NCBI GenBank assembly: GCA_965221775.1 | Contig: CBDCSU010000004.1 | Location: forward strand, 256,001-320,000 | Reading direction: 5' to 3' | Length of the DNA: 64,000 nucleotides | Source: Candidatus Latescibacterota bacterium | Lineage (GTDB): Bacteria > Latescibacterota > UBA2968 > UBA8231 | Shown here: piece after piece, positions 7,530-18,188 of the stretch | Numbering within the stretch: the first letter of the stretch is position 1 | Layout of the letters: the number at the start of each line of letters is the position of its first letter | The notes under the pieces: model-generated | Database searches by the model: none | Told to the model about the DNA's origin: nothing | What the model saw: only the letters and a program-made list of their open reading frames with translations | Made by a program: the position numbers and the translations under genes

Positions 7530-7578
7530 ATGGCGGCCCCCGCCATCCACGGATGGCGGAGTTGGCGGTTCCCGCCGA
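7530..7578. promoter_or_regulatory. Two putative enhancer (UAS) palindromes for the PspF-like activator
   Basis: ATGGCG-N5-CGCCAT (7530-7546) and TTGGCG-N5-CGCCGA (7562-7578), centres 32 bp apart, 100-150 bp upstream of the -24 element. Confidence 0.55.
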
Positions 7579-7678
7579 TTCGCAACGTCACATGACTTTC
7601 CGTTCGTCTCCAGGCAGTACTTGATAAAAGATTGAAGGAGATAACGTTAGGATTCCATCAGAGCCTTCGTAGTGGTCC

Positions 7679-7694
7679 TGGCACCGCTCTTGCT
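7679..7694 (+). promoter_or_regulatory. Sigma-54 (-24/-12) promoter of the pspA operon
   Basis: TGGCAC-CGCTC-TTGCT matches TGGCAC-N5-TTGCW, about 90 bp upstream of pspA; a sigma-54 activator is encoded in the same operon. Confidence 0.88.
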
Positions 7695-7784
7695 CAGCAG
7701 GGATGACAGGTCCCGGACCCCTCGGTGGAGGGGGGGGCACGGAAGGGTTAGTTTTCCACAACTTGGCTACGAGAGAGGCGAGCG

Positions 7785-8480
7785 ATGGCAAAGGGCATGT
7801 TCGCGCGCATGGCAGACATCCTGCGATCCAACATCAGCGAGGCCCTCGACCGCGCCGAAGAGCCCGAGAAGCTCATCCGGCAGATGATTCGCGAGATGGA
7901 GGAGGCGGTGAACAAGGCCACCGCCTCGGTGGGCACGGCGGTGGCCAACCAGAAGCGGCTCGAGCGTCAGCACGACGAGCGCGCCGCCCAGTGCGAGGAG
8001 TGGCAGCGGCGGGCCGAGCGCGCCGTCGAAGCCGGCGAGGACGACCTGGCCCGGCGCGCCCTCGAGCGCCGGGCGGTCCTGCAGCAGGCCGCCGCCGACC
8101 TGGCCCCGGCCCTGGAGGAGAGCCGCCGCACGGCAGAGCAGCTGCGCGAGCAACTCCGGGAGCTCAAGGGCAAGCTCGAGGAGGCCCGGACGCGTCAGGG
8201 GACCCTGATGGCCCGCCACCGGGCCGCCGAAGCCCGCAAGCGCCTGGCGCAGTCGATGCACGGCCTCGGAGACGACGCCTTCTCCAGCTTCGAGCGTTTC
8301 GAGCAGCGGGTGGAGGACACCGAGGCCGAAGCCGAGGCCCACGCCGAGGTCGCCGATGATCTGGGCGAGGTCGAGCGGCGGGTGCGGGACATGGACCGGT
8401 CGGCGGCGGTGGAAGATGAGTTGAAGGCCCTCAAGGACCGGCTCCTGCGCGAGCGCGAGCAGGCTTCGGGGAGCGCGTGA
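7785..8480 (+). CDS. pspA: PspA/IM30 family phage shock protein A
   Basis: MFARMADILRSNISEALDRAEEPEKLIRQMIREME, GEDDLARRAL, FERFEQRV and VEDELKALK; all coiled coil. Confidence 0.93.
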   Translation: MAKGMFARMADILRSNISEALDRAEEPEKLIRQMIREMEEAVNKATASVGTAVANQKRLERQHDERAAQCEEWQRRAERAVEAGEDDLARRALERRAVLQQAAADLAPALEESRRTAEQLREQLRELKGKLEEARTRQGTLMARHRAAEARKRLAQSMHGLGDDAFSSFERFEQRVEDTEAEAEAHAEVADDLGEVERRVRDMDRSAAVEDELKALKDRLLREREQASGSA

Positions 8481-8493
8481 GGGAGTGAGACCG

Positions 8494-8955
8494 ATGGGCA
8501 CCCCCTTGGAGGGATGGCTCCGACGCGCGGGATCCCTGCTGTTCAGGGCGGCGTCGGCCCTGCTCCTGTCGGTGGGCCTGGGGCTGATCCTCTACGGGAT
8601 GGGTCAGCGCATCGACCACGACGACTGGCAGGAGCCGCTGTCCATCGGGGTCCCCGTCTTCGCCCTCGGGGCCGCGGCCTGGTTCTGCTCCGGACGCCTC
8701 GCCGCCTCTGCCCGGCAGGCCCGCGCCCGGCGCATGGAGAACCGCATCCTGCGGCTGGCGCGAGAGCGCTTCGGCCGGCTCACGGTCATCGAGGCCGCCG
8801 TCGAGACCGGTCTCACCGCCGCCGAGACCGAGTCGATCCTTCGGGGCTTGGCCGATGGCGGATTCGTGGAGATCGAGGTCAACGAAGCCGGGGTCATGAG
8901 CTACCGTTTCCCCGAGGTCATCTACTCGTCGAGAGGCGAACGTTCCGCCTTGTGA
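8494..8955 (+). CDS. Two-TM membrane protein with C-terminal winged-helix-like domain
   Basis: Two hydrophobic segments, then ILRLARERFGRLTVIEAAVETGLTAAETESILRGLADGGFVEIEVNEAGVMSYRF (helix-helix-helix-hairpin pattern). Alternative GTG start at 8485. Confidence 0.7.
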   Translation: MGTPLEGWLRRAGSLLFRAASALLLSVGLGLILYGMGQRIDHDDWQEPLSIGVPVFALGAAAWFCSGRLAASARQARARRMENRILRLARERFGRLTVIEAAVETGLTAAETESILRGLADGGFVEIEVNEAGVMSYRFPEVIYSSRGERSAL

Positions 8956-8980
8956 GACAGCCCCGAAAGGACTGCGCCCC

Positions 8981-9337
8981 ATGAGGATTCCGACGATTTT
9001 CCACTGGCCCACGCCATGGTTCTGGGTCGGCCTGACGATATTGCTGCTTGGTCTGGTGGGGGATTCTCCGGCCATGGCGGTCGCCGCCGTGATCGTCCTC
9101 GCCGCAAGCGTGGCCCACGTCGCCAGGGGCAAGGCCGCCCGGCCGCGCCCCGAGGGCCACTGGGACGACGCGAGAGTCGGAGAGCCCCCGGGGCTGGACC
9201 AGCGCCTCACCGAGATCGAGCGGCGTCTCACGGACACGCAGGACGTGATGATCGCCCTGAGCGAGAAGATGGACCGCTGGGAGCGGGAGGGGATGTCCCC
9301 GGCCCCGGCTGGGGCCGCCGACAGGGGGACGGAGTAG
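8981..9337 (+). CDS. Small membrane protein with C-terminal coiled coil (PspB/PspC-like architecture)
   Basis: AAGGA RBS; N-terminal TM pair, then LDQRLTEIERRLTDTQDVMIALSEKMDRWER. Confidence 0.7.
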   Translation: MRIPTIFHWPTPWFWVGLTILLLGLVGDSPAMAVAAVIVLAASVAHVARGKAARPRPEGHWDDARVGEPPGLDQRLTEIERRLTDTQDVMIALSEKMDRWEREGMSPAPAGAADRGTE

Positions 9338-9705
9338 AGATGCTCGTCAGGATCTTCGCCGGGGCCCTCCTGCTTCTGGGCGCGGCCTCTGCCGTCAGCT
9401 TTCTCGTGGGAGCCTTCCCCGTCATCCTCCTCCCCTGGGACGGATTCCATGGCCCCCCTGGGGGGTTCGGAGTCTCGGGCTGGTTCGGTGATGCCCTCGG
9501 GGCCATCGTGCTGGTCACGCTCTTCGGCGTCCTGCTCAATGGGGGTTACTGGATCCACGTCCATCTGGAAGACCGCAGAGCCCGCACGAAGGGCGCGCTG
9601 CCCGAAGGGGACGTGGCCCGGCGGCTGGACGAGCTCGAGGCCCGCACCCGGGACGTCCTCGACGTGATGATCGCCTTGAGCGAGAAGATGGACCGCTGGG
9701 AACGG
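9242..9705 (+). repeat. 45-bp direct repeat (9242-9286 and 9661-9705)
   Basis: GACGTGATGATCGCC(C/T)TGAGCGAGAAGATGGACCGCTGGGA(G/A)CGG; 43/45 identical, both differences synonymous. Confidence 0.9.
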
Positions 9706-9747
9706 CAAGGCGCGCCCGCCGCCGCCGACCGCACCCCCGGGAATTGA
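9340..9747 (+). CDS. Small membrane protein, paralogous C-terminal coiled coil
   Basis: ATG at 9340 after GGAG; MLVRIFAGALLLL... with two TM segments; ends VARRLDELEARTRDVLDVMIALSEKMDRWER. Confidence 0.7.
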   Translation: MLVRIFAGALLLLGAASAVSFLVGAFPVILLPWDGFHGPPGGFGVSGWFGDALGAIVLVTLFGVLLNGGYWIHVHLEDRRARTKGALPEGDVARRLDELEARTRDVLDVMIALSEKMDRWERQGAPAAADRTPGN

Positions 9748-9761
9748 GGAGGAGCGCGATC

Positions 9762-9908
9762 ATGCTTGTCAGAATACTCGGCGCCGCCCTGCTGGCCGTG
9801 GGCGTCGTCCTCGCCCTGGACATGCTGCTGGGGGTGCTCTGGTCGATCCTCTCGGTGGCCTTCGTCGCCGTCCTCCTCTGGGGCGGATGGAGACTGCTGA
9901 AGTCGTGA
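9762..9908 (+). CDS. 48-aa hydrophobic membrane peptide (not in ORF track)
   Basis: GAGGAGGAG RBS; MLVRILGAALLAVGVVLALDMLLGVLWSILSVAFVAVLLWGGWRLLKS*; its stop overlaps the kinase GTG start (GTGA). Confidence 0.75.
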   Translation: MLVRILGAALLAVGVVLALDMLLGVLWSILSVAFVAVLLWGGWRLLKS

Positions 9909-11326
9909 CCTCCGCGGCCTCGGCCGGCCAGCGGGCCCTTCTGGAAGAGGGTCGCCGGCTCTTCCGCCAGGGCCGTCACCCCGAGGCCCGCCAGATCCTC
10001 CAGCGGGCCCTGGAGCCCTCCTCGGAGCAGGCCCCCGGGAACGGTGCCGCCGAGATGCTCTTCCTGCGGGGGATGTGCCACCTGCAGGAGGGCGCCGAGG
10101 CCGACGGCGTGGAGGACCTGGAAGCGGCCGCCGGCCAGGGCTGGCTGGAGGCTCGGTTCCAGCTCGCCCAGCACTACGCGGCCAAGGGCCGACGCGGCGA
10201 TCTGCGCCGGCGGGCCATCTCCCACCTCCGGCAGGTCCTGGCGGCCGACGCCGACGATCCCAGCCTCGCCGCCGGCCGCGACCGTGTCTGCTTCGCCCTG
10301 GGCGGCCTCTACGCCGAAGGCGACGAGCCCGGCGACGTCGACCGCGGCATCGCCGCCTACCGCCAGGGCCTCTCCGTCAACCCCCTCTCCGCCGTCGGGC
10401 ACAACAGCCTGGGACAGCTCCTGATGCGCTTCGAGCCCCTCGGCGCCCTCGGCGAGTTCAAGGTGGCCCTGCAGCTGGACCCGGACCTCCGGGCCGCCTG
10501 CGGCAACCTCGCCCGCCTCCTGGTCGAGCGCATCCCCCCGCGGGAGCTGGCCGCCGAGTACGCCCGCATCGTCGAGGAGTTCGAGGAGCGGGCCCCCCAC
10601 GTGCTCGCCCGCCTGTCCCAGGAGCTGGTGGAGCTGGGGCGCGAGCAGGCCTATCGCGGCCTGTACACCAAGGGCCACCAGCTGAAGAACCTGATCGGCC
10701 TCGTGGGCAGCCGGCTGCGTCGGCTGACCCGCAAGCTGCCTTGCGAGGACGGCGCGGCCGCGGAGCTGCGCCAGGTCGAGCAGGAGCACGCCCGCCTTTA
10801 CGATGAATGGGTGGGCTATCTGTCGGCCATGACCCCCGACCGGGTCGTCACCGGCCTGGTCGATCCCGCCCGGGTCGCCCGCCGGGTGGTGGAAGCCCTC
10901 GGCGCCGACACGCAGGTCGCGTTGGGAATGCGGGTGCAGGAGGGAGTGCCGCGGATCGAGGCGGACGAGCGCCTGCTCCGGGAGGCGGTGACCAACCTGT
11001 GCCTCAATGCCATACAGGCCGTCTCGGGGGAGGCCTTGCCGGGGGAGGTCTCCGTCGGCGTCGGTTTCGACGTCCACGGGGTGTTCATCGAGGTGGAGGA
11101 TTCCGGGCCGGGCATCCCCGCCGACGTGATCGACCACGTCTTCGATCCGGGGTTCACCACCCGGAGCCAGGGCAACGGCTACGGTCTCGCCATCGCCCAG
11201 CGGATCGCCCAGGCCCACCACGGCGACCTCCGGGTCAAGAGCCGCGTCGGCCGAGGCACCGTGTTCCGCCTCGACCTGCCGGTCAACTACGAAGCCGAGA
11301 GCCGGGTCGGCGGGGAGGTTCTGTGA
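9905..11326 (+). CDS. Cytoplasmic TPR-repeat sensor histidine kinase
   Basis: TPR-like helices; H-box GHQLKNLIG; N-box NLCLNAIQA; G1 DSGPGI; F/G2 FTTRSQGNGYGL; no TM segment. Confidence 0.87.
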   Translation: MTSAASAGQRALLEEGRRLFRQGRHPEARQILQRALEPSSEQAPGNGAAEMLFLRGMCHLQEGAEADGVEDLEAAAGQGWLEARFQLAQHYAAKGRRGDLRRRAISHLRQVLAADADDPSLAAGRDRVCFALGGLYAEGDEPGDVDRGIAAYRQGLSVNPLSAVGHNSLGQLLMRFEPLGALGEFKVALQLDPDLRAACGNLARLLVERIPPRELAAEYARIVEEFEERAPHVLARLSQELVELGREQAYRGLYTKGHQLKNLIGLVGSRLRRLTRKLPCEDGAAAELRQVEQEHARLYDEWVGYLSAMTPDRVVTGLVDPARVARRVVEALGADTQVALGMRVQEGVPRIEADERLLREAVTNLCLNAIQAVSGEALPGEVSVGVGFDVHGVFIEVEDSGPGIPADVIDHVFDPGFTTRSQGNGYGLAIAQRIAQAHHGDLRVKSRVGRGTVFRLDLPVNYEAESRVGGEVL

Positions 11327-12747
11327 GCGAGCGGGGCCGCGTCCTCATCGCCGACGATCAGCCGGAGGTGCGCGAGTTGCTGGCCGAGAAGCTGCGGGCC
11401 CGGGGCAAGGAGGCCGAGGTCTTCCACACGGGGAGGGAGTTGCTCGACCACCTGGCCGCCCATGGCGAAGGGGTGGAGCTGGCCGTTCTCGACCTCGACT
11501 TCGGCGCTGCCGAGCCCGATGGCCTGGCGGTCCTCAAGCGGGTGAGGCGGCTCTGCCCGGAGCTGCCGGTGATCATCCTCACGGGCAAAGGGTCCGTCGA
11601 CTCCGCCGTTGCCGCCGTGCAGGAGGGCGCCGCCGACTACATCGAGAAGGACCTCTACGTGGAGGACAAACTCGAGCTCGGCATGGAGAAGGTCGAGCGC
11701 ATGCTCCATGTGCTGCAGGAGAACGCGCGGCTGCGGGCGGAGAACGAAACCCTCGACCGCGACAACCTCTACTACCGCTCGGAGCTGGGAGCCCGCTACC
11801 ACATCGTCCAGGCCAGCGGCCGCGTGGAGCAGATCCTGCGGCAGGTCCAGCAGGTGGCCTCCATCCCGCGGCCCGTTCTCGTGCGGGGAGAGCGGGGGAC
11901 GGGCAAGGAGCTGATCGCCGCGGCCCTGCACTACGGGGGCAGCCGCGCCGAGCGGCCCTTCGTCAAGCTGAACTGCTCGGCCCTCTCCGAGACCCTGCTC
12001 GAGTCGGAGCTCTTCGGCCACGAGCGGGGGGCCTTCACCGGCGCCGGCGACACCCGTCGGGGGCGTTTCGAGACCGCCGACGGCGGTACCCTGTTCCTCG
12101 ACGAGATCGGCAACACCAGCCTCGAGTTCCAGAAGATCCTGCTGCGCGTCATCGAGTACCAGGAGTTCGAGCGCATCGGCGGCTCCCGCACGATCCGCGT
12201 GGACGTGCGCATCGTGGCAGCCACCAACGCCGACCTCGAGAGCGAGATCGAGGCGGGCCGCTTCCGCGCCGATCTCTACGACCGCCTGCGGTTCACCGAG
12301 ATCTCCCTGCCGCCCCTGCGCGACCGGCGCGAGGACATCCGCCCCCTGGTGGCGTTCTTCTCCCACCAGCTGTCCGAGGAAGTCGCCTCGATCCCGGAGC
12401 GCCCCTTCGACGAGCCCAGCCTGGCGGTCCTGGAGTCCTATGCCTGGCCGGGCAACGTGCGGGAGCTGAAGTTCGCCGTGGAACGAGCCCTGTGCGTGGC
12501 CCGGGAGGACCGGGTGACGGTCTCCGACCTGCCGCCCGAGATCGTCGGCGAAAGCGGATCCGCCCTCATCGGGAGGGCGCGCCTGCCCGGGACCTTCGAC
12601 GAGCAGATGGCCGCCGTCGAGAGAGGCCTGCTGCTCGCCGCCCTCGAGCGCAGCGGCCACAGCCAGAAGGACGCCGCGGCCTCCCTCGACCTGACCTACG
12701 ACCGTTTCCGCCACCTCCTGCGCAAGCACGGACTCACCCGGGCGTGA
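11323..12747 (+). CDS. Sigma-54-dependent response regulator (REC + PspF-like AAA+ + HTH)
   Basis: REC domain (IADD, VLDLD, ILTG, IEK); GERGTGKELIA, GAFTGA, FLDEIG and WPGNVRELK; C-terminal QKDAAASLDLTYDRFRHLLRKHGL. Confidence 0.92.
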   Translation: MSERGRVLIADDQPEVRELLAEKLRARGKEAEVFHTGRELLDHLAAHGEGVELAVLDLDFGAAEPDGLAVLKRVRRLCPELPVIILTGKGSVDSAVAAVQEGAADYIEKDLYVEDKLELGMEKVERMLHVLQENARLRAENETLDRDNLYYRSELGARYHIVQASGRVEQILRQVQQVASIPRPVLVRGERGTGKELIAAALHYGGSRAERPFVKLNCSALSETLLESELFGHERGAFTGAGDTRRGRFETADGGTLFLDEIGNTSLEFQKILLRVIEYQEFERIGGSRTIRVDVRIVAATNADLESEIEAGRFRADLYDRLRFTEISLPPLRDRREDIRPLVAFFSHQLSEEVASIPERPFDEPSLAVLESYAWPGNVRELKFAVERALCVAREDRVTVSDLPPEIVGESGSALIGRARLPGTFDEQMAAVERGLLLAALERSGHSQKDAAASLDLTYDRFRHLLRKHGLTRA

Positions 12748-12894: not shown

Positions 12895-13212
12895 ATGATG
12901 GAGAAGCAGTTCAAGGTCGAGACCTTCCTCGGCGGCGACCTGGCCGAGCTCTACGAGGCCGTCATGGAGCAGTTCGAGGCCTCCGGCTTCTCGAGCCTCT
13001 CCGAGATGAACCAGGCGCTGCTGCGCACCGGGCTGCTGCTGCACCTGACGATGCTGACCTCCATGGGTGCGGTCGCCGACGAGCAGCGGCGGCTCCGGTT
13101 GGAGGAACTGGCCGAGAAGGTGGGCCGGGAGAACCTGATGTGGGAGGTGGTGGAGCTGGCCCGGCGCCACTGGAAGGAGGGGGGGGCCGGCAGTATCGAC
13201 CTGCAGGCCTGA
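12895..13212 (+). CDS. Hypothetical protein
   Basis: ORF with normal codon bias and a weak RBS (AGAAGG); no secure family assignment. Confidence 0.6.
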   Translation: MMEKQFKVETFLGGDLAELYEAVMEQFEASGFSSLSEMNQALLRTGLLLHLTMLTSMGAVADEQRRLRLEELAEKVGRENLMWEVVELARRHWKEGGAGSIDLQA

Positions 13213-13328: not shown

Positions 13329-13712
13329 ATGGGAATGTACTCCGTGTCGGAAGCCTACAACGAGACCGTCCTCGACCACTACCGGAACCCCCGGAATGTG
13401 GGCGTTCTCAAAGACGCCAATGCCGTCGGCAAAGCGGAGAATTCGGCTTGCGGAGACGTTCTCCACCTCTACTTGGCCATCGACGGAGGCCGGGTGGTCG
13501 ACTCGCGCTTCCAGACCTTCGGATGCGCGGCCGCCATCGCCGCCGGCTCGAGGCTGACCGAGATGGTCACCGGCGCCACCCTCGACGAGGTACGGGCCAT
13601 CCGCCGGCGAGACGTGGTCGAAGCCCTCGGCGGACTTCCGCCGATGAAGGTCCATTGCTCGGTTCTGGCCGAGGACGCCCTTCGCGACGCACTCGAAGCG
13701 TACGAGCACTGA
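13329..13712 (+). CDS. iscU: Fe-S cluster assembly scaffold, IscU/NifU-N family
   Basis: VLDHYRNPRNVG, ACGD, TFGCAAAIA and LPPMKVHCSVLAEDA (three Cys); start may be ATG 13335. Confidence 0.9.
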   Translation: MGMYSVSEAYNETVLDHYRNPRNVGVLKDANAVGKAENSACGDVLHLYLAIDGGRVVDSRFQTFGCAAAIAAGSRLTEMVTGATLDEVRAIRRRDVVEALGGLPPMKVHCSVLAEDALRDALEAYEH

Positions 13713-13760
13713 AGCTCCCCGGAACGACAAACCGACAACCTCCACGAAAGGACGCCTTCC

Positions 13761-14375
<615 letters not shown>

Positions 14376-14456
14376 GCCCCGCGCCGGGAGCCCGCCCGGG
14401 TTCCCGGCGATCACCCATCGGCGGCCTCGCGCCGCCTCACCAGAAAAGGGCTTGCC

Positions 14457-14921
14457 ATGGCGATCCATCCCGGTGATCCGGCTCCGGATTTCACCCTGAA
14501 GAACACGGACCTGGAGGAGGTGACCCTCTCCTCCCTCCGGGGCCGAAACGTCGTCCTCCTGTTCGTGCCGCTGGCCTTCACCGGCGTGTGCACACAGGAA
14601 TTCTGCGAGGTCTCCCGCGGGATCTCGGCCTACTCCGCCCTCGACGCCGAGGTCCTCGGCATCAGCGTCGACAGTCCCTTCGCGCAGAAGGCCTGGGCCG
14701 AGCAGGAGGGGATCACCATCTCCCTGCTGAGCGATTTCAACAGGGAGGTCTGCGGCGCCTACGGTGCCCGGTACGAAGATCTGCTGGGCATGGTCGGCGT
14801 GGCCAAGCGTTCGGCCTTCGTCATCGACAAGGAGGGGACCGTCCGGTACGCCTCCGTCTCCGATGACGCCAAGGTCCTGCCCGACTTCGAGGCGGTGAAG
14901 GCCTGCCTCGAGTCGTTGTAG
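14457..14921 (+). CDS. Peroxiredoxin (AhpC/TSA, AhpE-like)
   Basis: APDFTL, PLAFTGVCTQE, GISVDS and RSAFVID. Confidence 0.88.
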   Translation: MAIHPGDPAPDFTLKNTDLEEVTLSSLRGRNVVLLFVPLAFTGVCTQEFCEVSRGISAYSALDAEVLGISVDSPFAQKAWAEQEGITISLLSDFNREVCGAYGARYEDLLGMVGVAKRSAFVIDKEGTVRYASVSDDAKVLPDFEAVKACLESL

Positions 14922-14957
14922 TCACAGGAACCTTCCCAAGGCCCAGGCCACGCCGCG

Positions 14958-16403
14958 ATGCGCGCTGAAGGGACAGGCCGCCCCTTGGCGGCTCCCGCAG
15001 AGGTCCACGACTCGACCTCTCTGGCCGGTACCCGGCTCCCCGGACAGGGCTGCGCCGACACGTCGGCCCTTGCCACTGCTCTCGACGAGTCTCACCGCGA
15101 CCTCCTCGACGGGGAGTTCTGGCGCACGATCCCCGCCTACGCCGGTCTGGGTGCTGACGAGTTCCACGATCACCGGTTCCAGAGCCGGAACTGCGTCTCC
15201 AGCCTCCAGAAGCTGCGTCAGGTTCTGCGCGGCCTCGTCTCCGAGGCGTTCTACGCCGATGTCGAAGCGGGTCTGCGCAGATCGACGATGAGCCTGCGCA
15301 TCTCGCCGTACTTGATGTCTCTGGTCGACTGGTCGGCGCCTGACGTCGATCCGATCCGCATCCAGTTCCTGCCTCTCGGCTCGCGGCATGAGGCCGATCA
15401 CCCGGAGCTGGCCCTCGACTCCCTCAACGAACAGGCCGATTCACCCGTGCCCGGGCTCACGCACCGGTACCACGACCGGGCCCTGTTCCTGGCCCTGGAC
15501 ACCTGTCCCGTGTACTGCCGCTTCTGCACCCGTTCCTACTCGGTGGGCCTCGACACCGCCGGCGTTGACAAGGTCCACTTCGGGGTCAGCCGCGAGCGCT
15601 GGGAGCAGGCCTTCGACTACATCCGCCGCACTCCCGCCATCGAGGACGTGGTCGTCAGCGGCGGCGACATGTACAACCTCAAGGCCGAGCAGGTCGAGTT
15701 GCTGGGCAGAACCCTCCTCGACATCGAGCACGTACGCAGGTTCCGCTACGCCACCAAGGGCCCGGCGGTGATGCCGCAAAAGCTGGTCACCGATCCCGAC
15801 TGGGTGCGCGCACTTGCCGAGGTCGGCGCCGAGGGCCGCCGCCGCCACAAGGAGGTGGCCCTGCACACGCACTTCAACCACCCCGCCGAGATCACCGCCT
15901 TCACCCGCCGCGCCATGGAAGGGCTGATGGCGCAGGGCATGGTCGTCCGCAACCAGACGGTGCTGCAGCGCGGGGTGAACGACGACGCCGACACCATGCA
16001 GCTCCTGGTCCGGCGCCTGGGCTATCTGAACATCCATCCCTACTACGTCTTTCTGCACGACATGGTCCGCGGCGTCGAAGAGTTGCGCACGAGTCTGCGG
16101 ACCGCCATCGATATCGAGAAGCAGGTACGCGGCGTCACCGCGGGTTTCAACCTTCCCGCCTTCGTTCTCGACACCATGGGGGGCGGGGGCAAGCGCGACG
16201 TCCACTCCTACGAGCGCTACGACCAGGAGACCGGCATCTCCGTCTTCACCAGTCCCGTGGTGAGGCCGGGGCAGCGGTTCCTGTTCTTCGACCCGCTGCA
16301 CAGCCTCGGGCCGAATGCGCGCGCGCTCTGGTCCGATCCCGACTCCAGGGCCGGCATGATCGCCGAGGCCCTGCAGGACCAGGCCGCAGGAGCCAGATCC
16401 TGA
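14958..16403 (+). CDS. KamA family radical SAM aminomutase
   Basis: PVPGLTHRY, CPVYCRFCTR, SGGD, HTHFNHP, NQTVL.RGVND and GGGGK (PLP Lys); start uncertain. Confidence 0.88.
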   Translation: MRAEGTGRPLAAPAEVHDSTSLAGTRLPGQGCADTSALATALDESHRDLLDGEFWRTIPAYAGLGADEFHDHRFQSRNCVSSLQKLRQVLRGLVSEAFYADVEAGLRRSTMSLRISPYLMSLVDWSAPDVDPIRIQFLPLGSRHEADHPELALDSLNEQADSPVPGLTHRYHDRALFLALDTCPVYCRFCTRSYSVGLDTAGVDKVHFGVSRERWEQAFDYIRRTPAIEDVVVSGGDMYNLKAEQVELLGRTLLDIEHVRRFRYATKGPAVMPQKLVTDPDWVRALAEVGAEGRRRHKEVALHTHFNHPAEITAFTRRAMEGLMAQGMVVRNQTVLQRGVNDDADTMQLLVRRLGYLNIHPYYVFLHDMVRGVEELRTSLRTAIDIEKQVRGVTAGFNLPAFVLDTMGGGGKRDVHSYERYDQETGISVFTSPVVRPGQRFLFFDPLHSLGPNARALWSDPDSRAGMIAEALQDQAAGARS

Positions 16404-16487
16404 CGATGGGAGCCTGCCAGGCAGGTTTCCAGGGTGGAGAAGGGCCCCGCGAGGGCGCCTGCTCCCGGAAACGGAAGTGACGACAAA

Positions 16488-18188
16488 ATGGACCCAAAGG
16501 CAGTCACTCTGCCCGCCGACCTGTGGCTGGCCGTCCTCTGCGGCCTCGGGTTGCTGCTGGTGGGCGTCGGCATCGGGTATCTCATCAGCCTCTATCTGCG
16601 GAGGCCCGATCAGAACCGTCTGGAGGAGGAAGCCGAGGCCAGGGCCGTGCGCCGCCTCGCCGAGCAGGAGCGCGCCCAGCGTCTGACATTTCTCGAGGAG
16701 AAGGACGGCTGGTACAAGCTGAAGGCCGATCAGGAGAACCAGTTGGAGACGGCCCTCGAAGAGCAGGGCCGCCGGGAGAAGGACCTGGCCACCCGGGAGC
16801 GGGAGATCGACACCCGGCGGCAGGAGGTGCGCAAGGAGTGGAGCCGCTTCAAGAACCAGGAGCGGCGCCTCAACTCGAGGGAGCGCAGCCTCCGGTCCAG
16901 CGAGGTGGAGATCGAGTCGCTGCAGCGGGAGTACCGGGAGAAACTGGAGCTCGCGGCCAATCTCACCGAGGACGAGGCCAAGGAGCAGCTCCTCGAGCAC
17001 CTGTCCGGCAAGGTGCGGGCCCGGGCGGCGGCCATGATTCGGGCCGAGAGAACGCGGGCCCGGGAGGAGGCGGACCGGGAGGCGCGCAAGATCGTCGCCC
17101 AGGCTATTCAGCGCTGCGCCGTGGAGGAAGCGGAGCAGGCGGCCACCTCCACACTGACGATCCCCAGTGAGAGCCTCAAGAGTCGGATCATCGGCAAGGA
17201 GGGCCGCAACGTGCGCGCCTTCGAGAACGCCACGGGCGTCAAGGTCGTGGTCGACGACACGCCCGACACGGTGTTGCTCTCCTCCTTCGATCCCCTTCGC
17301 CGCGAGGTGGCGGCGCGCTCGATGGAGCGCCTGGTTCGCGAGGGCGGGTTCACCCCCAACCGGATCGAGGAGGTGGTGGCCGAGGCCCGCCGCCTCGTCG
17401 ACAAGGAGATGGAGGAAGCGGGTCACCGCGCCCTCGGCAAGATCGGGGCGAGCGACTATCACGCGGATCTGCCCGCTGCGGTGGGGCGGCTCAAGTTCCG
17501 CTCCAGCTACGGACAGAACCAGCTCCAGCACTGCCTGGAGGTGGGACAGCTCGCGGGGCTCATGGCCCAGGAGATCGGCCTCGACGCCACTCTCGCCCGG
17601 AGGGCCGGGCTGCTGCACGACATCGGCAAGACCGTGAGCCGGGAGATGGAGGGCTCGCACATCGAGCTCGGAGTGGAGATGGCGGAGCGCTTCGAAGAGC
17701 ACCCGGTGGTACGCGAGGTCATCGCCGAGAGCCACGAGGATCACGAGCGCGTCGATCCGATCTGCTTCCTGGTGAAGGCCGCCGACGCCATCTCCTCGGT
17801 CCGCCCGGGAGGCCGCCGGGAGGACTTCGAGGGCTACGCGCGCCGGATCATGAAGCTGGAGGAGATCGCCACTTCCTTCGAGGGGGTGAAGGACGTCTAC
17901 GCCATCAACGCCGGACGCGAGATCCGCGTCATGGTGCGCGGCGAGCAGGTGAGCGACGACGACGCCGAAATCCTGGCCTTCCACATCGCCGAGCGCGTGA
18001 AGAACGAGCTGACCTTCGCCGGCGAGGTGAAGGTGATGGTCGTCCGCGAGACCCGCGCCGCCCGGAGCACCAGCCTGCGGCCCCGCGGACCACGAGGCGG
18101 CAACGCGAGGTCGAGGCGCCGGGCCCGCGATCCCTCCCCCCGCAACGGACGGCATGCTCGCAACGGACAGCCCCGGCCCGGCGGGTAG
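16488..18188 (+). CDS. rny: Ribonuclease Y
   Basis: N-terminal TM, coiled coil, KH domain (RIIGKEGRNVR), HD domain (GLLHDIGK) and YAINAGREIRV. Confidence 0.93.
   Translation: MDPKAVTLPADLWLAVLCGLGLLLVGVGIGYLISLYLRRPDQNRLEEEAEARAVRRLAEQERAQRLTFLEEKDGWYKLKADQENQLETALEEQGRREKDLATREREIDTRRQEVRKEWSRFKNQERRLNSRERSLRSSEVEIESLQREYREKLELAANLTEDEAKEQLLEHLSGKVRARAAAMIRAERTRAREEADREARKIVAQAIQRCAVEEAEQAATSTLTIPSESLKSRIIGKEGRNVRAFENATGVKVVVDDTPDTVLLSSFDPLRREVAARSMERLVREGGFTPNRIEEVVAEARRLVDKEMEEAGHRALGKIGASDYHADLPAAVGRLKFRSSYGQNQLQHCLEVGQLAGLMAQEIGLDATLARRAGLLHDIGKTVSREMEGSHIELGVEMAERFEEHPVVREVIAESHEDHERVDPICFLVKAADAISSVRPGGRREDFEGYARRIMKLEEIATSFEGVKDVYAINAGREIRVMVRGEQVSDDDAEILAFHIAERVKNELTFAGEVKVMVVRETRAARSTSLRPRGPRGGNARSRRRARDPSPRNGRHARNGQPRPGG

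Follow-up and report, generated by a model that had tools for sequence, protein, structure and literature searches.

In the phage-shock protein (Psp) response of Escherichia coli, the sigma-54 activator PspF is inhibited by PspA through residues Y51, L52 and W56, the YLW patch, described as the PspA docking site (PMC3791423); for the promoter of pspA, two upstream activating sequences (UASs) and control by IHF are reported (PMC3709507). The arrangements listed by Ravi et al. include pspA with membrane kinases and with regulators made of a receiver (REC) and a winged helix-turn-helix (HTH) domain, as well as PspF variants without a receiver (PMC11237479). Two questions about the Psp response are still open: by what means it detects membrane damage, and in what way PspA links its own polymerisation to signalling. 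Here we describe a locus at positions 7530 to 12747 of a 64,000-nucleotide stretch of a Candidatus Latescibacterota genome (GCA_965221775.1, contig CBDCSU010000004.1, positions 256,001 to 320,000), the whole of which is called the window below. In this locus a pspA gene, coding for a bacterial endosomal sorting complex required for transport (ESCRT)-III protein, is followed by four small genes, a gene for a predicted soluble TPR histidine kinase and a gene for a receiver-bearing PspF-like activator. In the literature no description of such a PspA/TPR-kinase/REC-PspF wiring was found; web-application data, external data files and subscription papers could hold such neighbourhoods.

The seven open reading frames (ORFs) all lie on the + strand, so that the gene set and shared orientation of a first-pass annotation of this DNA stand as given. 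pspA (7785..8480) comes first, then the four small ORFs, then the gene for a protein with TPR and HATPase domains (9905..11326) and that for an activator with a receiver, a sigma-54 AAA+ domain and a Fis-type HTH (11323..12747). The GTGA overlaps that had been noted at the last two junctions were found as overlapping start and stop codons at 9905-9908 (48-residue ORF and kinase) and 11323-11326 (kinase and activator). The GC content at third codon positions was 0.86-0.94 across all seven ORFs, and no convincing terminator or sigma-70 promoter was found in the operon interior. Contigs from RNA libraries (four runs from two studies) covered parts of the locus and bridged some gene junctions; they also cover the flanking genes and thus cannot show transcription or one transcript.

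Conservation of the kinase and regulator as a pair beside pspA, on which the reading in the first-pass annotation depended, was found throughout the relatives, which are kin and not independent samples. Among 153 genomes of the phylum a pspA orthologue was present in 103 and an activator orthologue in 96, the latter all in three families of the window's class; kinase orthologues were found in 28 of 41 relatives. In 90 of the 94 genomes with both pspA and activator the two genes lay on one strand, 2.6-8.6 kb apart, with the activator co-oriented with and downstream of pspA, and in the remaining four they lay on different contigs. Forty loci were fetched, 20 by kinase match and 20 by activator match, and in 39 of them the order was pspA, a winged-helix gene, kinase, activator (the exception being genome G155); the kinase stood directly before the activator in 39/40. 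In two of the families (f2 and f4) pspA and the kinase are separated by additional genes. The closest kinase matches in named records (84-94% identity) came from metagenome-assembled genomes labelled Candidatus Latescibacterota or Gemmatimonadaceae, a scan of named genomes with the kinase returned four close orthologues and six generic kinases only, and a plasmid search returned nothing above 49% identity. In four activator-less genomes that were checked, only distant PspAs (22-29% identity) and no sigma-54 box were present. At the level of sequence, these comparisons confirm the locus as a sigma-54 pspA operon of one Latescibacterota class, a real and conserved Psp variant.

The best NCBIfam match of the activator was TIGR02974 (PspF), with a score of 351.8 against a cut-off of 443.55, that is, below the equivalog score. 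In a first FastTree of 149 sequences (30 of 179 aligned activators were dropped as short or multi-domain, and three extracted orthologues had no match) the activator fell in a 43-tip group with E. coli PspF. An IQ-TREE of 57 sequences, the bootstrap of which was not fully settled, gave a support of 99/91 for the group of the activator and PspF, 100/99 for canonical PspF and 93/88 for a mostly receiver-bearing sister clade of canonical PspF. The group was separate from NtrC, ZraR, AtoC, NorR, FhlA, TyrR and the genome's other included activators; among the genome's activator domains in the trees, only that of the window falls with PspF. A grouping of the AAA+ domain with NtrC, ZraR and AtoC was rejected by the approximately unbiased test (p-AU 0.003), in agreement with the earlier placement of this domain near PspF. 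In the smaller tree of that test canonical PspF lay inside the receiver-bearing group without support (26), and for this reason the trees do not fix the order of receiver loss or gain. The wider receiver-bearing clade includes proteins named from Kofleriaceae. One E. coli region, taken as an additional reference, contained no activator. Metagenome matches to the alignment of the wide clade were for the most part canonical PspF or generic activators; of 80 loci, three belonged to the receiver-type clade, the one among them with a receiver (L090) being cut at a contig end, and six had no extractable activator.

The receiver residues D11, D12, D57 (at 11491), T87 and K109 were invariant in 62 activator orthologues, and the Walker and GAFTGA residues invariant or nearly so. 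L52 and W56 were absent in 121 of 121 orthologues, with Y51 kept in 109. The corresponding loop of the window activator, HYGGSRA (from 11929), has Ala at the W56 position, a replacement reported to abolish PspA binding to E. coli PspF (PMC6003685). W56 was kept in 34 of 35 canonical PspF loci, the last being unreadable. The window PspA matched PF04012 along the whole protein (155.9 bits against a cut-off of 33.9, E 1.6e-45) and stayed below the equivalog cut-offs of TIGR02977 and LiaH. Its helix 1, which is of the E[DE]TLVEV[RK] type in 28/28 canonical PspAs, reads EEAVNKATASVGT in the window's clade, where no other part of the protein is as conserved (0.93). No published account was found of which PspA residues touch PspF.

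The TPR-HATPase protein has no hydrophobic segment, and one such segment occurs in 3 of 96 orthologues, so that its description as soluble in the first-pass annotation holds. The structure model (predicted local distance difference test, pLDDT, 90) comprised helical repeats at residues 4-209, a long helix running into the dimerization and histidine phosphotransfer (DHp) hairpin, and the catalytic ATP-binding (CA) domain; the core had its best fold match in ZraS and also folds as HK853. Among the TPR repeats, conservation falls from 0.71 in the inner to 0.31 in the variable outer ones, and an Atlas search gave no usable match for the sensor region. H258 (at 10676), N364, N368, D399, G401, G403, G425 and G427 were invariant in 67 kinase sequences, and His, N, G1, F and G2 boxes of the HisKA autokinase type are conserved. 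Phosphotransfer between kinase and activator is predicted.

A complex of kinase residues 78-312 and PspA residues 20-150 was modelled, each protein with its own alignment. The score was 0.68, as against 0.00 for the best of three controls; 116 of 157 solved pairs attained this mark, as did 2 of 215 mismatched ones, a calibration that is rough here, own alignments having been used. The runs agreed in at least 94% of contacts, with a partner pLDDT of 84. In the modelled interface, kinase TPR residues 149-191 and 221-229 meet the PspA hairpin at residues 41-62 and 105-123. Columns conserved at 90% or more made up 16/26 of the kinase interface vs 50/209 elsewhere (conservation 0.86 vs 0.66) and 20/25 of the PspA interface vs 53/106 elsewhere (0.91 vs 0.78). 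Of the 25 PspA interface residues, canonical PspAs matched 2-7 and the PspAs of a second operon, described below, 10-14. Thirteen solved PspA-like sequences are named Vipp1 or PspA, and a solved PspA-TPR complex, of which the model might be a memorised copy, is not known to us. On the strength of this model, binding of PspA to the kinase is predicted as probable.

The motif TGGCAC-N5-TTGC at 7679..7693 (TGGCACCGCTCTTGC), a sigma-54 -24/-12 promoter, is the sole perfect match within the window. A search of the window with one mismatch found two sites against a shuffle mean of 2.5, no better than chance, and the box rests therefore on its conservation: it was present upstream of pspA in 37/37 related loci with upstream DNA (0-2 mismatches). 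Further upstream lies a tandem palindrome with the consensus TGGYG-N5-CRCCA. Its first copy, TGGCG-N5-CGCCA at 7531..7545, has no mismatch and stands 148 bp before the -24 box; the second, at 7563..7577, has one mismatch and follows 32 bp after the first. The start of the locus in the first-pass annotation, 7530, coincides with the first copy, which was not named there. The palindrome with at most one mismatch was found in 37/37 orthologous promoters (shuffle mean 0.6), a count that is partly circular because the consensus was drawn from the same promoters; 32 of the 37 carry two or more sites, mostly 21-22 or 31-32 bp apart. Between these sites and the box, a tract at 7608..7658 with 61% AT in a window of about 70% GC is a candidate IHF bending site, and the matching place was AT-rich in the orthologous promoters inspected. 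As a check independent of these promoters, the palindrome matches twice in the E. coli pspA promoter, at -100 and -80 (1 and 2 mismatches), positions which we take to be the mapped UASs; with at most one mismatch it was found in 6/19 canonical PspF loci. The palindromes are probably the activator's own binding sites.

The genome of the window contains rpoN, three IHF/HU-family genes, a second pspA and 15 strong sigma-54 activator domains. Tandem palindromes accompany 4 of its 52 sigma-54-like sites, with 0.09 expected. These four sites precede the pspA operon, the second pspA operon and two small HTH genes, and the last two count as one event because the genes are paralogous. A second pspA with sigma-54 box and tandem palindromes was found in three genomes, that of the window (G000), G155 and G023, and among 30 loci of the small-HTH family the box was present in 11 and the tandem pair in 7. 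It is very likely that the sigma-54 promoter is driven by the receiver-bearing PspF relative and the kinase, and the predicted autoregulation of the operon is plausible.

The best reading of these data is that the PspA brake acts on the kinase and not on the activator, so that PspA would control its own activator indirectly, via the sensor kinase. In unstressed cells the soluble kinase would be held in an off or phosphatase state by free PspA, docked with its hairpin flank on the inner TPR repeats, and the PspF-like activator would remain unphosphorylated. Upon membrane damage PspA would be recruited to the membrane with the help of the PspB-like and winged-helix membrane proteins, and its polymerisation would set the kinase free. 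The freed kinase would then phosphorylate D57 of the activator, which would assemble on the tandem palindromes and, with the aid of an IHF-type bend, open the sigma-54 promoter of the pspA operon, and also the promoters of the second pspA operon and of the small HTH genes. Newly made PspA would rebind the kinase and switch the response off. The chances are about even that this sequence of events holds in full, PspA being the inhibitor of a kinase that is active. A broader reading can be offered only tentatively, being rather more apt to fail than to stand as a whole: a bacterial ESCRT-III protein would be the direct ligand of a kinase TPR sensor, the unpolymerised PspA pool would be read as a membrane-damage signal via phosphorelay, the catalytic base of the kinase would have moved from the position after the histidine (H+1) to the N-box helix, and the receiver-bearing clade, extending at least to Myxococcota, may preserve an older state from which canonical PspF arose by receiver loss and gain of the YLW patch, an order that the trees allow but do not show.

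Several observations weigh against PspA as the inhibitor of an active kinase, and some of them favour other explanations. H+1 is Q (54) or R (13) in the 67 kinase sequences, within an H-box of the form H-[QR]-[LI]-K-N, and is never acidic, and in HisKA kinases an acidic residue there is described as needed for autokinase activity (PMC8292422). Because the H-box is atypical, the kinase activity assigned in the first-pass annotation is not assured, and the protein may be mainly a phosphatase. It could even be a PspA-regulated phosphatase only, with the activator phosphorylated by acetyl phosphate or another kinase, the PspA-bound form acting as a drain and stress ending the drain. This is unlikely. 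In its favour, H+4 is N in 67/67 sequences, N or T at this position is stated to govern phosphatase activity in HisKA proteins, and DrBphP, with a non-acidic H+1, is given as a phosphatase (PMC8292422). Against it stand the invariance of H258 and of all ATP-binding boxes, and a feature of position 360 in the N-box helix, which is E or D in 67/67 sequences; ZraS, AtoS and NtrB have Q there and E at H+1, where the kinase has Q. Among 14 kinases found by pattern in the genome only this one combines Q at H+1 with E at 360, which suggests a swap that placed the catalytic base in the ATP-binding domain. As to the predicted contact, the model and the interface conservation are not independent, because the same alignments fed both, and the PspA interface motif is not exclusive to kinase-bearing genomes, since 16-19 of its 25 residues are kept in the kinase-less G047 and G048 (background PspA identity 61-66%), and likewise in G069. 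G047 and G048, which belong to another class, have PspAs 55-59% identical and no sigma-54 box, and no kinase orthologue was found in them; G069, a single contig that is 97% complete, has pspA and the small partners, with kinase and activator not found, and G155 has the activator without the kinase or an orthologous pspA. It is likewise improbable, if only a little more so, that PspA is an effector alone, the signal to the kinase coming from elsewhere, for example from the PspB-like coils, from the winged-helix protein or from misfolded proteins, and the modelled contact being a false positive. TPR domains bind helices broadly, and the persistence of the motif in G047, G048 and G069 would fit such an arrangement; the wide gap between the pair and all three controls, the rarity of mismatched pairs at this mark and the near invariance of the TPR face used by the model argue against it.

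The complex model is also silent on the sign of regulation, and it is by inference that the sign is taken as inhibitory. PspA could bind the TPR domain and activate the kinase, for instance if polymers at the membrane gathered it into clusters, with positive feedback as the result, and a kinase without a membrane anchor could be recruited in this way. Such a circuit would be expected to run away unless another brake existed, because the operon that is induced begins with pspA; in addition, the subunits of PspA/Vipp1 polymers pack against one another by the hairpin flank. Activation by PspA is distinctly improbable. The retention of Y51 in most orthologues, together with a second, C-terminal PspA site reported on PspF (PMC6003685), would be compatible with direct inhibition of the activator by PspA through a surface other than the W56 loop, the two-component input being then a second, independent switch. 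With L52 and W56 missing from every orthologue, with Ala in place of W56 in the window activator and with the helix-1 motif typical of PspF-linked PspAs replaced, we regard this as very improbable. The kinase and activator might, lastly, be conserved neighbours that control other genes, another of the 15 sigma-54 activators of the genome serving the pspA promoter; in two families as much as 8.6 kb separates the pair from pspA, and a gene for an extracytoplasmic function (ECF) sigma factor lies in this interval. Given that no other activator of this genome in the trees falls with PspF, that the E. coli pspA promoter has the same palindrome and that the four activator-less genomes are also without the orthologous pspA type, this explanation is the least probable of all. 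Control of the activator by way of a PspA-bound kinase is thus retained as the best reading.

The four small proteins each have one or two hydrophobic segments and no Pfam or NCBIfam match over cut-off. The first-pass annotation had left all four without assignment, and this still applies to the 48-residue protein with two transmembrane (TM) segments (9762..9908), for which 27 orthologue ORFs were found by pattern in 39 loci scanned, with no consistent Pfam family among 20 members; of the others, two are PspB-like paralogues and one is a membrane-anchored winged helix. The latter (8494..8955) has two TM segments and a cytoplasmic winged-helix domain at residues 76-141 (model pLDDT 79.7), comes after pspA in every intact locus, and was present in 39/39 loci with pspA. 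Its fold matches were tied at Z 9.6-10.6 (Z-alpha 10.6; ESCRT-II Vps22 10.2, root mean square deviation 2.0 over 68 aligned residues; ArsR 10.1), so an assignment to ESCRT-II was inseparable from other winged helices. Foldseek gave no match for it at E ≤ 0.001, the Atlas only unnamed clusters, and Pfam no family. The PspB-like copies 1 (8981..9337) and 2 (9340..9747) are 69% identical over the coil and share a C-terminal coil motif. Members of their family combine a conserved coil with one or two TM helices; the architecture, a short TM protein with a cytoplasmic coiled coil encoded beside pspA, is PspB-like, and the gene copy number varies between loci. Comparison of the coil with PspB by hhalign gave 83% over 37 coil columns, a value that generic coils can give, and 0/24 family members matched Pfam PspB (PF06667). 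From their position, these proteins may serve as membrane partners of PspA.

The second psp operon (L190:7500-10090; G000:C5:47500-50090, - strand) codes for PspA2, a TM2-domain protein ending in the PspB-like coil and a larger protein with the same coil, and in G023 (L193) it sits directly behind the activator. The stand-alone HTH proteins, of about 55-67 residues, have 11 copies in the genome of the window. Two of these, L225:413-613 (G000:C6) and G000:C5:50367-50553, lie behind a sigma-54 box and tandem palindrome, the C5 copy being frameshifted; one may speculate that such proteins compete for the activator sites. Divergent receiver-bearing PspF-like activators were encountered outside the class of the window (P0140, P0146, P0147, P0150, P0151, P0159, P0163-P0165, P0171, P0180, P0187 and P0207), one cluster of them bearing the name Kofleriaceae, and at L101:2670-4190 and L105:890-2410 receiver-less members of the clade are followed on the same strand by an ORF of 112-118 residues resembling the PspA hairpin alone.

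The genes inserted between pspA and the kinase in L065, L069, L070 and other f2/f4 loci code for an ECF sigma factor and a Band-7/flotillin protein with a likely NfeD partner, and in some for a DUF2807/Toastrack protein. The insert of L069 contains a DUF2807/Toastrack protein, an ECF sigma factor, a membrane protein without Pfam match, which we read as NfeD-like by its position, and a Band-7 protein. The genomes without the module (L201-L205) have a distant PspA type; in L202 its gene lies beside a small chaperone-like gene and a spermidine-synthase-like membrane gene, which on our reading of the ORFs is as in the CesT/Tir-PspA operons of Ravi et al. The sigma-54 box is weakened in the G069 locus (L212), and in G155 (L192) the activator is 5'-shortened, with no kinase or pspA nearby. 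In L073 (G021:C35) the operon is there, with kinase, activator and pspA broken by frameshifts or stops, by decay or assembly error. Downstream of the window operon, a 105-residue protein of no known family (12895-13212, + strand) is encoded after the activator in half of the first 20 loci (10, every one from the window's family), and an ordinary cluster (13329-18188, + strand) codes for a NifU-like scaffold, an Fe/Mn superoxide dismutase, an AhpC/TSA protein, a lysine-aminomutase-like radical SAM protein and RNase Y.

The sensor predicted here is a contact between two proteins in solution, and its interface residues can be named. If it is real, the locus would represent a new wiring of a well-studied stress response, in which a PspA-bound soluble kinase replaces the direct PspA-activator brake of E. 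coli, and two unrelated devices would read the free PspA pool: in Proteobacteria a loop of the AAA+ domain, in the window operon the TPR domain of a kinase. This would further offer a cue to how PspF came to be without a regulatory domain, along with a family of natural histidine kinases whose H+1 is not acidic.

Like the enterobacterial PspF/pspABCDE system of E. coli and Yersinia, the window operon has a sigma-54 promoter before pspA, an activator of PspF lineage, two palindromic upstream sites of similar sequence, small partners with TM segment and coiled coil, and a PspA that is effector and, here by prediction, negative regulator too. It differs in that the activator bears a receiver, lies co-oriented downstream instead of divergently and is without L52 and W56, and in the addition of a soluble TPR kinase as the predicted PspA target; no PspC, PspD or PspE was recognised in the window operon, and its partners are not Pfam PspB. 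The Firmicute LiaFSR-liaIH, the actinobacterial pspA-pspAA-HK-RR (histidine kinase and response regulator) and the PspC-kinase fusion systems also combine a PspA homologue and a two-component system in the same cluster. These systems are described with membrane kinases and REC-wHTH or REC-HTH regulators (PMC11237479), whereas the window operon has a soluble TPR kinase and a sigma-54 AAA+ output. No Lia component was recognised in it, nor a membrane kinase with HAMP or a REC-HTH regulator, and the activator falls in the wider receiver-bearing sister clade of PspF; as descent, the "hybrid" design put forward in the first-pass annotation is therefore unsupported. NtrB is a soluble kinase/phosphatase switched by a bound partner protein. 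With NtrB/NtrC, ZraS/ZraR and AtoS/AtoC the window operon shares the pairing of a kinase, its core folding like ZraS, with a REC-AAA+-HTH activator, but its AAA+ domain is of another lineage, its H-box is without an acidic H+1 and its predicted controlling partner is an ESCRT-III protein. The window operon resembles PspF/PspA in how it works, yet belongs neither to that system nor to Lia.

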